Below, one piece after another: positions 16,472 to 43,585 of a stretch of DNA of 64,000 nucleotides. The DNA lies in the IMG/VR virus record IMGVR_UViG_3300007102_000044, positions 40,254-104,253 of that record; one strand, given 5' to 3'. Source of the DNA: a virus. Within the stretch, counting starts at the first letter, position 1. Each line of letters opens with the position of its first letter. The notes beneath the pieces were generated by a model that worked only from the letters and a program-made list of their open reading frames with translations, was not told the DNA's origin and did not search any database. The position numbers were made by a program, and so were the translations under genes.

Positions 16472-16654
16472 TTAATCTTCCATCATCTGAATACATCCCT
16501 GACAGTCATTACAGATAAAGTCATTTAGGTATTTTGAAAACCTTTCATCATCTATTTCAAATGGTTCTTCACCATGTTCCATACAATAAGGTTTACCACA
16601 TATATTACAATGATGAATAATTTCAGATGAACCACAATAATAACATTCAGTCAT
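16472..16654 (-). CDS. small Cys/His zinc-finger protein (AN1-like)
   Basis: CYYC, CNIC..YCMEH, CNDC; start moved to MTEC. Confidence 0.6.
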   Translation of the reverse strand: MTECYYCGSSEIIHHCNICGKPYCMEHGEEPFEIDDERFSKYLNDFICNDCQGCIQMMED

Positions 16655-16664
16655 CTGTAAATTT

Positions 16665-17723
16665 TTAATCTTCCCCATCAGAATCATCCTCATAAATTTC
16701 TTCAGGATTGATATATCGTTTCTCAAATACAGAATCAATTATTTTGATTACCTCATGATGGTCAATTCCAAATCTGTCTTCACCCTTTCTTGCATATTCC
16801 ATCATAGCATCAATAAAAGGTTTCATATACAGAACATCAACACCCACAAGCTGTTCATACATAGTCTTAATATCATAAAGGTCAAGTCTATCTATTTGGT
16901 AGACCATTTTAAGGATTTCACCCACATTAATAAACCATCCTCTTTTGATAAATTTTCTCATTCTGAAAAGACTTGCAATTGGGAATTTTGAACCCGTATA
17001 CTTAAGTTCTTTATTAAGTACACATTTAAGTGATTCAATGTTAATTACTACACCAGTTGAATAAGTCCAATACATTTTAGTATGCTGATAATCATAGTTT
17101 GAAATAATTATTTCAGGATTTCCATAAAACCTAAGTATAAGCTGTATATCGTTTTCAAGTGATATAGCATTATCAGTTATACAAACAGGTTTGTATGGTT
17201 TATCAGTCATATTCTTATTATATTTTACCTTTGTAATACCTGATGATGGTGTAAAACATTTGACCTGATATCTAACATCTTTAAAAGGTTCTGCTGTGTA
17301 CTGTAGTGGAAGGTCAAAATCACTGAGTTCATGATAGTTACATCCATAAAACATATGCACACCTTCATCATAATCATTATCAACAGACCATTTAATATCT
17401 TTATCATTCTCAGAATCATAAATCATTACTCTAAGGTCATTTTTATCACCATAATTGTTTGTATGGTCTCTGAATTTATTTCTTGCCGATGATTTGGTTA
17501 TAGCATAGTTGCAATAATAATTAGCAACATCAATTAACACGTTAATATCTTTGAAATAAATATCATAATCATTGACTTCTTCATCCAGTAACATTGATGT
17601 AATACATCCACCAGATACAACAATATTATCCAGAATTCTAGTTCTAAGAGTTTTATCTTCAATAGATTTAATCCAACTTTGAACCTTATAATAAATCCTT
17701 TTATCTATTTGTTTCTGTATCAT
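16665..17723 (-). CDS. nucleotidyltransferase-fold protein
   Basis: VVSGGCITS...NDYDIYF, NYDY.H, SLFRMRKFIKRGW. Confidence 0.6.
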   Translation of the reverse strand: MIQKQIDKRIYYKVQSWIKSIEDKTLRTRILDNIVVSGGCITSMLLDEEVNDYDIYFKDINVLIDVANYYCNYAITKSSARNKFRDHTNNYGDKNDLRVMIYDSENDKDIKWSVDNDYDEGVHMFYGCNYHELSDFDLPLQYTAEPFKDVRYQVKCFTPSSGITKVKYNKNMTDKPYKPVCITDNAISLENDIQLILRFYGNPEIIISNYDYQHTKMYWTYSTGVVINIESLKCVLNKELKYTGSKFPIASLFRMRKFIKRGWFINVGEILKMVYQIDRLDLYDIKTMYEQLVGVDVLYMKPFIDAMMEYARKGEDRFGIDHHEVIKIIDSVFEKRYINPEEIYEDDSDGED

Positions 17724-26793: not shown

Positions 26794-27516
26794 ATGAATT
26801 ATAAAAATATGTATACACAAATTATTAATTTAGCCAAAAATAAAAATAGGTCTAAAAATGATGGATATTTTGAAAATCATCATATTGTACCAAAATCACT
26901 TGGTGGTGATAATAATCCATCTAATTTAGTTTTACTAACAGCTAAAGAACATTTTATTTGTCATCATCTTTTAACTAAAATTTACCCAAACAATAACAAA
27001 TTAAAATTTGCATTCTGGGCTATGTGTAACCAAACACATGGTGACGTTAAAAGAACATATAAAATAACATCAACCGTTTATGAACAATCAAAAATTGAAT
27101 TTGCTAAAGCCAATTCTAAAAATAGAAAGGGTGTGTCAGTAATGACTAAAGAAAGAAGACAAATTCAATCAATTAATTGGAAAAATAACAACCCTCATAA
27201 AGCTGGTAAAGAAAGTCATTTATATAATACTCCTAGAAATAAATCCATTAAAAACAAAATATCTACCACTAAAATTAATAACCCAGAAAGAAATGCTCAA
27301 TATAAAGGTGATTGGATAACACCATTTGGTATATTCAAATCAGCTAATCAAGCATCTAAATCATGTGGTATAATTGTTGATACCATTAGAAAAAGGTGTA
27401 ATAATGCATCTAAAATAATTACTAAAAGAATGATTTCAAACACATATGATTTAAATGAATCTCATATAGGAAAAACATTTAAAGAATTAGGTTGGGATTT
27501 TCAACCAATTCCATAA
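26794..27516 (+). mobile_element. mobE: MobE-like free-standing HNH homing endonuclease inside NAMPT gene
   Basis: MNY..Y..II..A, ENHHIVPKSLGG.N...NLV.LTAKEHF.CH.LL; C-terminal NUMOD-like HTH. Confidence 0.85.
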
Positions 27517-28330
27517 TCTTTTCATACGCATCTTCTTTATTTGAACATTCTTCAATTATTTCATTTATTTTTTCAGCGTATATTTTCGCAGATGATGTCA
27601 TTACACTATGTTCTGTTGCACCAACACTTCCACCAACAAAACCATCTTCGTTGTAATACTGTTTAGCACAAATAATAGCAGGAAGAGTATCCGTTCCCAT
27701 AAATGATGTAAGATGCCCCATACCAGATGTACAAGCACTTTCTCTTCCACCCATACCCCTAAAACTAAAATCATGACATTGAAAATCTTTAAACCATTCC
27801 ATTTCATCACTACCAGTTTCAGCAAAATACTTATCAACAATCTTTCTATATTCAAATGCAATAGTAGCACTTGTGATAGGTTGCCAAATAATAGCACTGA
27901 AAATAGTTTCAATATAGTTTGTCACCCAGAAAAATTCATCAATAGTATTTTCAATAGTGATGAATGGAACTCTAATAGGTGCTAGTGTTCCTTCTGGAAG
28001 TGCTTTAATAACAATTGGAAGATAACCTAAATCATGAAGCCTTTCAATATGTGTTGTATCGAAATCTTCAGTATTAAGAGCCATTGTAATTTCAGATTTA
28101 TAACTGTTTACAACTTCTTCTTTTGGTTTATCAAAGAAATTCTTTTGAAAATAATCCATAATGAAATCTTTGATTAGATGTGTATATCCAAACACAACGA
28201 CCTCATTTACTCCATTGAGTCTACTTGTCCTCGCTGTGAGGTTTGAATAAACCTTTTTAATACCTTTTGGGTATTGATTAATATGACCAACCTTATAAAA
28301 GTCAGTCCAAAACATAGCGTTCATTTCCAT
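27479..28330 (-). CDS. nadV: NAMPT/Namat, N-terminal half of split gene
   Basis: TDFYKVGH..QYP, YIET, HDFSFRG, GHLTSF.GTDT, ATEHSVM. Confidence 0.9.
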   Translation of the reverse strand: MEMNAMFWTDFYKVGHINQYPKGIKKVYSNLTARTSRLNGVNEVVVFGYTHLIKDFIMDYFQKNFFDKPKEEVVNSYKSEITMALNTEDFDTTHIERLHDLGYLPIVIKALPEGTLAPIRVPFITIENTIDEFFWVTNYIETIFSAIIWQPITSATIAFEYRKIVDKYFAETGSDEMEWFKDFQCHDFSFRGMGGRESACTSGMGHLTSFMGTDTLPAIICAKQYYNEDGFVGGSVGATEHSVMTSSAKIYAEKINEIIEECSNKEDAYEKIMELVENPNLIL

Positions 28331-28342
28331 AATTTTTACTCC

Positions 28343-28552
28343 TTACCTTTTTAGTTTTTTCTTTTCTTTATCTTTATTTTGATACTTCATACCAACATCC
28401 TGTTTTATACATAGATTATCACACACTGGACAATCCATATCATTTGCTTTCAAACAGTCATAACAGACTATATGAGAACAAATAGGTGTATAATTCTGAT
28501 GTGTTACATTTCCACACATATCACAAACAGCTGAAAATATTGTTGGTATCAT
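28343..28552 (-). CDS. C3HC4 RING-finger protein (69 aa)
   Basis: C-x2-C-x11-C-x-H-x2-C-x2-C-x7-C-x2-C; GAGG SD before MIPTIF. Confidence 0.7.
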   Translation of the reverse strand: MIPTIFSAVCDMCGNVTHQNYTPICSHIVCYDCLKANDMDCPVCDNLCIKQDVGMKYQNKDKEKKKLKR

Positions 28553-28556
28553 TTTT

Positions 28557-29297
28557 CTAATCCTCGTAATATTGATTGATAACATTATTCCATGTGTAGT
28601 ATGTCCAATCTTCTTTTGGAAAATGTCTACCATCTTTACTTGTCATTACAATACCATATCTAAATCTATATGGTAGGTTATGCCAAGTTCTATCACATCT
28701 ACCTTCATTGAATGCTGTTTCAATCATTTCTATCATATCAGCTTTACCTTGTTTGTAAAGCTCTTTGTGACTATATACTGTCCTTGCATACATTGACACA
28801 GAATTTTTAATACAATCTCTATGTATCCATAACATATAATTACCTAAATCTTCTTTAGGTACATTGAATATTCTGGAATCAAACATTGCAAGTTTTGTTG
28901 TGCTTGTTCGGTCTTTAATGACTTGATTAAATATTGCCGTAGCCATACTAGCTGTAACACTTGCAAGTTTCTGTATCTTATTTCCAAACATTTGTTCAGA
29001 GTGTTCATTCTTATCATCCAGTAGAATGAGACTTATTTCATCACTTTGTGTATACCCAATACAACAGTTTTGAACATTTTTTACAAGATATTCAGTTGTT
29101 TTATCCATTGCATATGTGATATCTTCATCGAATGGATATTCAAATCCTTTTGTATATGTATGAAAAGCTTTACCATCAATTCTTATTACAACTGGTGTTT
29201 TCTTTTCAACACAATCTGAAGTATATACATGTTCGTATTGTTTCATTCTTTGCCCAATTGGGTCTTTGTCATAACTTTTACTCATATAATTGACCAT
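28557..29297 (-). CDS. thg1: tRNA(His) guanylyltransferase Thg1-like 3'-5' polymerase
   Basis: IRIDGKAFHTYT, YTQSDEISL, K..SV.ASMAT..F, FDSR. Confidence 0.9.
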   Translation of the reverse strand: MVNYMSKSYDKDPIGQRMKQYEHVYTSDCVEKKTPVVIRIDGKAFHTYTKGFEYPFDEDITYAMDKTTEYLVKNVQNCCIGYTQSDEISLILLDDKNEHSEQMFGNKIQKLASVTASMATAIFNQVIKDRTSTTKLAMFDSRIFNVPKEDLGNYMLWIHRDCIKNSVSMYARTVYSHKELYKQGKADMIEMIETAFNEGRCDRTWHNLPYRFRYGIVMTSKDGRHFPKEDWTYYTWNNVINQYYED

Positions 29298-29638
29298 CCA
29301 TTTCTAATTATTGTATATTTTTTACCAAGAAATTTTGCTGTGTTAATGCAATACTCAGTACCTTCAGATTGACCATCCCAGATAAAAACCATTTCATCAC
29401 ATGTATCAATCATTGCAAGGTTTTCATGAACCCAAGAATCAAAATATCTTTGTGACATACAAATCATATCTCTTTTATGAGTTCCATACCAATCAGACAT
29501 AATTTCACCATTTCCAGTTCTACGTGATAGTATTGGTGTATAGTTTGCACATATTGATTTAATTGTTTTATCAATAAAATCCATATCATAAGCAGAGAGA
29601 CTATAATTTCTTGAACATATAATGCCTATCTTTTTCAT
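29282..29638 (-). CDS. SLOG/DUF2493-like protein
   Basis: IGIICSRNY, FIWDGQSEGT. Confidence 0.6.
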   Translation of the reverse strand: MKKIGIICSRNYSLSAYDMDFIDKTIKSICANYTPILSRRTGNGEIMSDWYGTHKRDMICMSQRYFDSWVHENLAMIDTCDEMVFIWDGQSEGTEYCINTAKFLGKKYTIIRNGWSII

Positions 29639-33603: not shown

Positions 33604-33801
33604 TTAACCAAATATTTTATCTTGACATTCCTGACACATTCCAGAAATTGAATATTCCTTAAGACTAAGCTTGTCTTTGAAATCTGTTTGAGTGTTTACC
33701 TTCTTATTACATGTTCTACATTCATCATCATTTCCAGACCATCCTAGAATCTTTGCAAATTGTTTTTGGAAATCATCCATTTCAGGTGTTTTGTTACTCA
33801 T
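33604..33801 (-). CDS. small Zn-binding phage protein
   Basis: CRTC...FKD.LS.KEY.ISGMCQECQD. Confidence 0.7.
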   Translation of the reverse strand: MSNKTPEMDDFQKQFAKILGWSGNDDECRTCNKKVNTQTDFKDKLSLKEYSISGMCQECQDKIFG

Positions 33802-42414: not shown

Positions 42415-43385
42415 CTCTCTAAAAATTGTTCATGTATATCTATACAAAGTTGGTTAACCTTATCATAATTTGGTTTACTTGGCAATTCACTTTTTTCATA
42501 CGCTCTATTAAACACATCATCAAAAAATTCACCAATTTCCATCACTTCATTTAGTTTATACTTACCTGTCTTAATATCCATAAGCAAGTCATGGTGTCTA
42601 AGTGGGAACTGTAGAGAACCAGTTTCAAAAAGTTCAATACCCTCTAAAAACAGCCTTATATAATGATGGCAAAATTTTAGGTCATATCCATGTTGCAACC
42701 ACCCTTCCTTTCGATGTGAAGCTTTTGATAGCCTCTCATCTATCATTTTATACGCTTTCTTAACCATTACATGTTTCTGAAAGTTTAAATCACCACATTT
42801 AACATGGTCTTTCTTATCCTCAAAAACAGGTTTCTCATTTTCATTATTATACATATGATTCAGAAATCTTTCATTCCCAATCATTTCTTTAGCATCAAGC
42901 TCAAGCCATTTTTCAAGTATTTCTTTACCTTCCATCAACTCTTTCAGATTATCAGGCTTCACAAGCATTTTCTTTTGTTGTGATATAGCATAACCACCAA
43001 ACCTATGTTTAATAAGTTTAGATGGAAATATATGTTTATTATCAAGTATCATTTGACCAAGAGTATCTTTATATATAATATTACTCTCATTAACGAATAC
43101 TTGTTCGATTATATTTGGATTGCACTCCATTGCAAGTTTTAGAAACTTTTGAGCGGTATACATCTTTCTATCAACTGCATTTGCATCATTTCTACCATCT
43201 GGCGATTTGGATTCAATTGATAGGTCTACTTCCTCAATATTCTGAAAACCATATATAAATTCTTTATCAGGTATGAAAACACCAGCAAAGTCTAAATCTG
43301 ATTCAGGTGTTGCAAGTCCATACAGATGTGAACCCACCATATATTCAAGTATTTTATTGTTTTCAACCATTTGTGGTTTGTTCAT
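42411..43385 (-). CDS. Pol-beta-superfamily nucleotidyltransferase (RlaP-like)
   Basis: VGSHLYGLATPESDLD..GVF, NPNIIE, KFCHHYIRL. Confidence 0.85.
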   Translation of the reverse strand: MNKPQMVENNKILEYMVGSHLYGLATPESDLDFAGVFIPDKEFIYGFQNIEEVDLSIESKSPDGRNDANAVDRKMYTAQKFLKLAMECNPNIIEQVFVNESNIIYKDTLGQMILDNKHIFPSKLIKHRFGGYAISQQKKMLVKPDNLKELMEGKEILEKWLELDAKEMIGNERFLNHMYNNENEKPVFEDKKDHVKCGDLNFQKHVMVKKAYKMIDERLSKASHRKEGWLQHGYDLKFCHHYIRLFLEGIELFETGSLQFPLRHHDLLMDIKTGKYKLNEVMEIGEFFDDVFNRAYEKSELPSKPNYDKVNQLCIDIHEQFLER

Positions 43386-43585
43386 CTCAATCCTCTACCA
43401 TCTTTTATACTGAATTTACTCTGTAAGTCTAGTTTAACCCCTATATCCTGAATCTTTTTTATACAGGATACACAAACATCATCAGTTTTACACTCGTATT
43501 CGCCCTTGTTAATTATTATGGTGTAACTTGCATCACCATCATTAATTATTGCATCACATACATCACAATGTCTTTTGCTACTCAT
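43382..43585 (-). CDS. small Zn-finger protein
   Basis: CDVC...DVCVSC. Confidence 0.6.
   Translation of the reverse strand: MSSKRHCDVCDAIINDGDASYTIIINKGEYECKTDDVCVSCIKKIQDIGVKLDLQSKFSIKDGRGLR

Follow-up and report, generated by a model that had tools for sequence, protein, structure and literature searches.

The window analysed here, a 64,000-nucleotide stretch of phage DNA, encodes on its minus strand, between positions 28,343 and 28,552, a protein of 69 residues that is very probably a divergent RING-HC finger and a member of no curated family at threshold. It is likely to have the RING fold with two zinc ions. The reading that we prefer, with a probability of about 0.5, is that it acts as a non-catalytic, zinc-stabilised binding module, either an adaptor or an inhibitor, whose target is probably a host protein. 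RING fingers are the hallmark of ubiquitin ligation in eukaryotes, and such a domain is unexpected in a phage; it provides a cheap experimental lead into the contest between phages and ubiquitin-like immunity. No report of a phage RING was found in the literature searched, nor was one found in PHROGs or INPHARED, and the significance of the finding is limited by its coming from one gene of one uncultured phage, with no relatives. The features of the locus are as follows.

28557-29297, minus strand: gene for a Thg1-like tRNA(His) guanylyltransferase (Pfam Thg1, E 1e-33), upstream of the RING gene.
28561-28565, minus strand: GAGGA Shine-Dalgarno (SD) motif, 8 nt upstream of the RING ATG and within the last codons of the Thg1-like gene.
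28343-28552, minus strand: stand-alone RING-HC-type zinc finger with a Lys-rich tail (69-codon ORF plus stop; codon usage; RING-HC pattern).
28421-28525, minus strand: RING core, residues 10-44, with its eight ligands (Pfam, PDB sequence matches, AF2 model).
28346-28390, minus strand: Lys-rich C-terminal tail, residues 55-69, predicted to be disordered (composition, pLDDT).
27479-28330, minus strand: N-terminal half of Namat/NAMPT (Namat-N), first gene of the NAD+ operon (Pfam NAMPT_N and NAPRTase).

The RING ORF begins with an ATG at 28552 and ends with a TAA at 28345-28343. The stop codon of the Thg1-like gene (28559-28557) precedes the ATG by 4 nt, and at the other end the RING stop codon overlaps the AAGGAG site of the Namat-N gene, whose own ATG at 28330 lies 12 nt further downstream. 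The ORF exactly fills the 226-bp gap between the Thg1-like and Namat genes, within a tightly packed, single-strand gene array. The original prediction had given the gene its own SD sequence and a place directly upstream of an NAD operon, and both assignments stand. SD-like motifs are present ahead of 63% of the phage ORFs of at least 100 residues, compared with 5% of random positions, so the GAGGA of the RING ORF matches the habit of this phage. A consensus scan predicted no terminator between the Thg1-like, RING and Namat-N genes, and promoter-like sites were not in excess over shuffled sequence (21, against 19.2 ± 4.3 expected), so that the three genes look to be co-transcribed and translationally coupled.

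A codon log-odds score trained on 101 long ORFs of this phage gives 0.296 in the RING frame and at most 0.03 in the other five, the long ORFs of the phage scoring 0.366 ± 0.12. All eight of the Cys codons are TGT, which is the Cys codon preferred by the phage, and the GC content is 29%, compared with 30.5% for the genome. Since both codon usage and GC content are native, a recent transfer from a eukaryote was rejected. An alternative start at 28633, giving 96 codons, was likewise rejected, because it would overlap the 3' end of the Thg1-like gene out of frame and without advantage. To judge from its sequence, the ORF is very probably a real gene, and one long resident in this phage genome.

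The eight predicted zinc ligands are C10, C13, C25, H27, C30, C33, C41 and C44, with C48 and H18 to spare. Their spacing, C-x2-C-x11-C-x-H-x2-C-x2-C-x7-C-x2-C, conforms to the C3HC4 pattern of RING-HC fingers, and the exact arrangement first read from this DNA, CDMC-x11-CSH-x2-CYDC-x7-CPVC, was confirmed from the ORF at 28552 to 28343. A RING-HC expression, C-X2-C-X(9-39)-C-X(1-3)-H-X(2-3)-C-X2-C-X(4-48)-C-X2-C, picks out a single stop-to-stop segment when all six frames of the genome (130,519 bp) are scanned, and no segment at all in 100 mononucleotide shuffles; it found no other match in about 550 kb of further loci, mostly Namat loci of other phages. Readings of the finger as PHD, LIM, B-box, ZZ or AN1 were rejected by inspection, since their ligand order does not fit.

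Profile searches place the protein consistently among RINGs, at scores short of the curated thresholds. The whole protein is matched in Pfam by Prok-RING_4 (E 3.4e-4), zf-RING_5 (E 6.5e-4) and zf-RING_2 (E 9.5e-3), and more weakly by zf-RING_UBOX, zf-C3HC4 and zf-C3HC4_2, all of the matches falling in the RING clan. Five Pfam RING models are matched end to end, every score lying under the gathering cut-off. The 41-residue core on its own reaches 24.7 bits with Prok-RING_4 (E 2.2e-5; cut-off 27), 22.0 bits with zf-RING_5 (E 1.6e-4; cut-off 27.9) and 18.3 bits with zf-RING_2. When the core was shuffled five times with its ligands preserved, the top-scoring model gave each shuffle between 10.6 and 15.1 bits, so that about 10-14 bits of the core score come from non-ligand residues; examples are Pro23 (two before C25), Val29 (before C30), Leu34 (after C33) and Pro42 (after C41). 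Because sub-threshold Prok-RING_4 matches at E ≤ 1 also turn up in 11 of the 14 control genomes, we regard the profile evidence as good, if not conclusive.

Searches against sequences of known structure point the same way. A phmmer search of the PDB with the core returned nine sequences at E ≤ 1, every one of them a RING or SP-RING (PML, NP95/UHRF1, Hakai, RNF125, SIZ2), and for the whole protein the same was true of 29 of the 30 matches at E ≤ 10. The best NCBIfam match is to the RING segment of RING_SCO0854 (NF041916; E 0.0013). By features, the nearest clusters in the ESM Atlas are RING families, Nucleocytoviricota RING clusters among them, with a best score of 0.93 and a shared-feature count of 157, which is under the level typical of same-family matches.

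Single-sequence structural models were poor, with a pLDDT of 49.7 from AF2 and a value of 0.51 for the ESM Atlas model. AF2 was also given a four-row alignment, in which the phage protein was accompanied by three RING sequences with all eight ligands aligned in each: a 54-residue bacterial RING (L179/L180), a RING fragment from a bacterial assembly (L174) and a eukaryotic multi-RING protein (P0005). The resulting model, from which zinc is absent, has a pLDDT of 65.4 overall and about 70-79 over residues 11-50, and it shows short strands and a helix (residues 31-36) in a beta-beta-alpha layout, followed by a disordered tail. The best 50 Foldseek matches to it in the PDB are nearly all RING domains, headed by the PML RING (rmsd 1.6-1.7 Å over 40-41 columns; TM score by target 0.71-0.74; probability 0.99-1.0; E 0.03-0.07). 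VIA-align, with 48,161 representatives and Foldseek's list, returned RING (TRAF3, Z 4.7), ZZ, U-box and B-box1 domains at Z 3-4.7, below a top row that is not a RING, namely a zinc-binding archaeal 30S subunit protein (Z 5.7, rmsd 2.0 Å, 52 aligned); these Z-scores, none above 5.7, are low and within the range that the tool itself calls non-specific.

The RING shape of the four-row model cannot count as independent evidence, because three RING sequences went into its alignment. The model would belong to the cross-brace binuclear treble-clef class, and no cross-brace family other than RING-HC has a ligand order that fits the phage sequence. Structure prediction and a fold search had been proposed as the check on the original prediction, and the outcome is divided: the four-row model does match RING, ZZ and U-box cross-brace folds, but single-sequence models of useful quality were not obtained, and the model that matches had been conditioned on RINGs. 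The RING identity itself is supported, short of proof, by sub-threshold Pfam scores above those of ligand-preserving shuffles, by the RING matches in the PDB and by the RING-like cross-brace model.

The finger is followed by a strongly basic tail, as had been claimed: residues 53-69 have a pI of 10.2 and are 41% Lys, compared with 9% Lys in the proteome and a pI of 4.5 for the core. In the four-row model the pLDDT falls below 50 at residues 54-66.

In eukaryotic RINGs the E2 is contacted by a hydrophobic residue between the first two Cys, by a Trp or other hydrophobic residue of the helix, and by a Pro-hydrophobic pair between the last two Cys; active RING E3s also have an Arg or Lys linchpin after the last ligand, as in the c-Cbl, RNF4 and BIRC7 complexes. 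Read against the roles of these residues in c-Cbl, RNF4 and BIRC7, the phage RING keeps Met12 and the pair Pro42-Val43, while the helix position is occupied by Asn37 and the linchpin position of an active E3 by Asp45. The 130.5-kb phage record gave no match to ThiF, UQ_con, Prok-JAB or ubiquitin, although the UQ_con search is a weak one that gave no match in any control genome either; the RING is thus not part of a phage-borne conjugation cascade. Nor does it lie in an E1-E2-JAB or Ubl gene neighbourhood, its neighbours being the Thg1-like and Namat/NARP1 genes. Given that no E1, E2, JAB or Ubl gene was found in the phage and that Asp stands at the linchpin, an autonomous E3 role is unlikely, and so, on the sequence evidence, is a self-sufficient ubiquitin ligase.

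The preferred reading, a binding module directed at a host protein, can be set out as follows. The RING would be made from one early or middle operon, together with Thg1-like tRNA-repair and NARP1-type NAD+ reconstitution genes, and the product would be a minimal C3HC4 cross-brace finger with two zinc ions, a disordered Lys-rich tail and no ligase activity of its own. Contact with the partner, probably a protein of the host, would be made by the surface that RINGs usually employ, of which Met12, Pro42 and Val43 appear to be kept, and the basic tail may add affinity or a second contact. Its expression would coincide with that of the repair and counter-defence genes. If the partner were to lie outside the ubiquitin system, the protein would still represent, if this reading is true, a RING scaffold reused beyond ubiquitin biology.

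The neighbouring genes have putative repair or counter-defence functions, in line with this reading. Thg1-like genes are common in large phages, and the one upstream of the RING has relatives in 164 phage records; its product shares 42-46% identity with its counterparts in large phages of Bacillus, Staphylococcus and Shewanella. Just upstream of it, an ORF of 118 aa at 29282-29638 (minus strand) is matched faintly by nucleoside 2-deoxyribosyltransferase-like PHROGs (E 0.003) and by DUF7768. Downstream of the RING, the Namat gene is split by an HNH endonuclease and followed by a PRPS-like gene, and the group is a putative NARP1-type NAD+ reconstitution operon, the domain content of which was confirmed here. 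The window also has other small ORFs with clustered Cys residues. One of these, at 16472-16738 (minus strand), carries the arrangement C-x2-C-x8-C-x2-C-x4-C-x2-H ... C-x2-C-x2-C and a weak Pfam match to FYVE (E 0.0022, profile positions 5-63 of 67), and is possibly a second finger of the binuclear treble-clef class; paired CxxC motifs also occur in the ORFs at 43382-43585 and 33604-33801 (both minus strand).

Relatives of the phage RING were sought widely. None was found among 5.8 billion proteins by a word-indexed search that covered near and longer lengths, and HMMER against 1.84 billion representatives gave four matches besides the query, of which three were repeat artefacts and one was a eukaryotic multi-RING protein (30-37% identity). 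Scans of IMG/VR, GTDB genomes and JGI metagenomes, and of five genomes of candidate lineages, yielded no relative. In a tblastn search of 50,697 phage records (INPHARED) the only matches, at E = 8, were to a Bacillus phage protein with the half-RING-like motif GHKFCYDC. This protein, annotated as 'DNA binding domain protein' (gene 15 of Bacillus phage 276BB001; L173:1495-1782, plus strand), has 95 aa, with C-x2-C ahead of GHKFCYDC, an acidic tail, and weak matches to zf-C3HC4 (E 0.039) and an A2L zinc ribbon (E 0.0021); it is possibly a finger of half-RING-like type that six Bacillus phages conserve.

The PHROG families gave no match at E ≤ 1 for the whole phage RING protein, and a best E of 0.076 for the core alone. 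Three other RING-type sequences likewise found no convincing PHROG family (best E 0.0024, a "tail fiber" family), so RINGs seem to be essentially absent from that catalogue. The loci with related Namat genes, two from IMG/VR and 80 from metagenomes, showed neither the RING pattern nor a tblastn match, which marks the finger as an accessory gene peculiar to this phage. With no homologue in the collections searched, evidence from conservation, covariation or selection is absent for this protein.

RINGs had also been described, on first inspection of this DNA, as rare in bacteria, and this was borne out by a six-frame search of 401 Bacteroidota genomes, in which no sequence exceeded the Prok-RING_4 cut-off and only one exceeded that of zf-RING_5. 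At E ≤ 0.001 the same genomes gave six partial Prok-RING_4 matches, covering model positions 14-37 only, and, to zf-RING_5, six matches of about 22 bits or more. Bacteroidota proteins of about 750 residues (L167:1-1914, minus strand, and L168-L172) have only the second half of a RING (CGH ... CPFC), matching Prok-RING_4 positions 14-37 at 24-25 bits, and could be related, in degenerate form, to the SCO0854 RING family.

The phage is an isolated, distant T4-like lineage and is uncultured. Its record of 130.5 kb has direct terminal repeats and 30.5% GC, and its DNA polymerase is 37% identical to that of cyanomyoviruses. No close relative was found through the Thg1-like gene or the DNA polymerase, none was found in IMG/VR, and a 3-kb megablast search was empty. 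The nearest cellular relatives of Namat-N are NAMPTs of Chitinophagaceae/Ferruginibacter, at about 58% identity, which hints at a Bacteroidota host; such a host is doubtful, because SD motifs ahead of 63% of ORFs would be unusual for Bacteroidota and their phages.

A more specific role than that of a general binding module, and the one first suggested for this DNA, would be in counter-defence against ubiquitin-like conjugation. The Bil, Bub and CBASS Cap2 systems of ubiquitin-like conjugation have recently been recognised as antiviral, and to our knowledge little is known of phage countermeasures against them. On this view the RING would bind the E2, or an E2-like domain, of a Bil, Bub/6E or type II CBASS Cap2 system of the host, or of a RING-containing E1-E2-JAB system, so that conjugation to phage proteins was blocked or redirected; lysines of the tail could even act as decoy acceptors. 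In favour of this are the RING signature itself, in which Met12 and Pro42-Val43 supply hydrophobic residues at E2-contact positions, and the location of the gene in a putative counter-defence operon. Burroughs, Iyer and Aravind reportedly predicted in 2011 that prokaryotic RINGs occur in E1-E2-JAB(-Ubl) operons, and one bacterial example with a small stand-alone RING at its head was found here:

L180:3767-7421 (contig C11, 137766-141420; Bacteroidota), same strand throughout: RING-TM-E2-JAB-E1 operon (Pfam, PADLOC).

This operon encodes a 54-aa RING-like protein (zf-RING_5, E 3.8e-5), a 115-aa membrane protein, a 221-aa E2 (PADLOC, E 1.7e-12), a 389-aa JAB protein (2e-9) and a 377-aa ThiF/E1 (5e-30; PADLOC E1-E2, 3e-26), and is followed by genes for MORN and PEGA proteins. 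The gene upstream encodes Prim-Pol/PriCT_2, and no Ubl gene was identified in the operon. Its gene content suggests a bacterial ubiquitination-like system that includes a RING and is carried on a mobile element. Operons of this type are described as rare and are predicted to function in defence (10.1101/2023.09.26.559546).

Against a countermeasure acting through an E2, however, it must be said that conjugation by Cap2 needs no RING. Bil operons are likewise reported to work without any E3, their E2 being thought to recognise targets directly (PMC11601596). The phage RING moreover has Asp45 in place of the linchpin Arg or Lys, and Asn37 in place of the hydrophobic residue of the helix; it is only 24% identical to the RING of the bacterial operon, and PADLOC gives no match to it at E ≤ 1. 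Docking on an E2 of host immunity, though plausible in principle, is for these reasons unlikely, and we regard as distinctly improbable the fuller proposition that this is the first case of a bacterial virus that uses a RING finger to engage an E2 or E2-like enzyme of host Ubl immunity and so to silence or redirect the system. If that were true, the RING-E2 interface would be a viral counter-defence tool in prokaryotes, as it is in eukaryotic viruses, and a phage RING in a putative counter-defence operon is at any rate a cheap and testable candidate countermeasure against ubiquitin-like immunity.

It is quite doubtful that the protein is instead a nucleic-acid-binding finger, in which the acidic finger and basic tail would together contact RNA or DNA, perhaps as an aid to the Thg1-like enzyme or as a small regulator. 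The composition of the tail suggests such a role, as do the apparent translational coupling to the Thg1-like gene, the archaeal 30S zinc-binding protein in the best VIA-align row, and faint NCBIfam matches to YacG and to a reverse gyrase zinc finger. Yet the finger itself is acidic, with its pI of 4.5, Lys-rich tails are partly a matter of composition in a genome of 30% GC, and the signature is specifically that of a RING and not of a zinc ribbon. Nor did the tblastn search of phage records, which covered relatives of the RING protein, reveal a Thg1-RING pairing elsewhere. That the ORF is non-functional, a chance or recently arisen frame between the Thg1-like and Namat genes with a Cys/His pattern that only resembles a RING, is very improbable: it is indeed a singleton with every profile score under the curated cut-offs, but the pattern never arose in the shuffles, the core carries RING signal from non-ligand residues, codon usage is gene-like in the RING frame only, and the ORF has a good SD and fits its gap in the operon exactly.

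The phage RING was compared with the closest known systems. Among eukaryotic short-loop RING-HC fingers (PML, 5YUF and 1BOR; NP95/UHRF1, Hakai, RNF125) the same eight ligands occur in the same C3HC4 order. PML is the closest in several respects: its second half, C-x2-C-x7-C-x2-C, is identical in spacing to that of the phage RING, the two sequences are about 48% identical over 23 residues, the PML RING is the best structural match of the phage model, and both proteins do without an Arg or Lys linchpin, PML having a non-canonical Gln where the phage has Asp45. Unlike the eukaryotic proteins, the phage protein consists of a finger and a basic tail only, with no dimerisation or substrate-binding domain; its host presumably has no ubiquitin, and its scores lie under the Pfam cut-offs.

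Of the prokaryotic systems, the RING of the E1-E2-JAB operon (L180:3767-3931) is likewise a tiny RING-only protein, and its zf-RING_5 E-value of 3.8e-5, like the 1.6e-4 of the phage core, is sub-threshold. It heads an operon with E2, JAB and E1, however, whereas the phage RING lies beside Thg1-like and Namat genes in a genome in which no E1, E2 or JAB was found, and the identity between the two is essentially that of the ligands. The MXAN_6230/SCO0854 family (NF041916; Prok-RING_4) provides the best prokaryotic profile match, over model positions 114-171 of 842, but its members are multidomain proteins of about 750-860 residues, and the phage protein scores 17 bits against a cut-off of 600, only the finger being common to both.

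The RING-only proteins of eukaryotic viruses, such as arenavirus Z (5I72) and the small RINGs of giant viruses, act in cells that possess a ubiquitin system, and their sequence relation to the phage RING is confined to the generic signature. They are nevertheless very small, as it is, and consist essentially of one RING; they are binding platforms and not necessarily ligases, and Lassa Z is among the structural matches of the phage model (Z 3.1). Set beside all these systems, the phage RING is best called a divergent member of a known domain kind in an unusual carrier.
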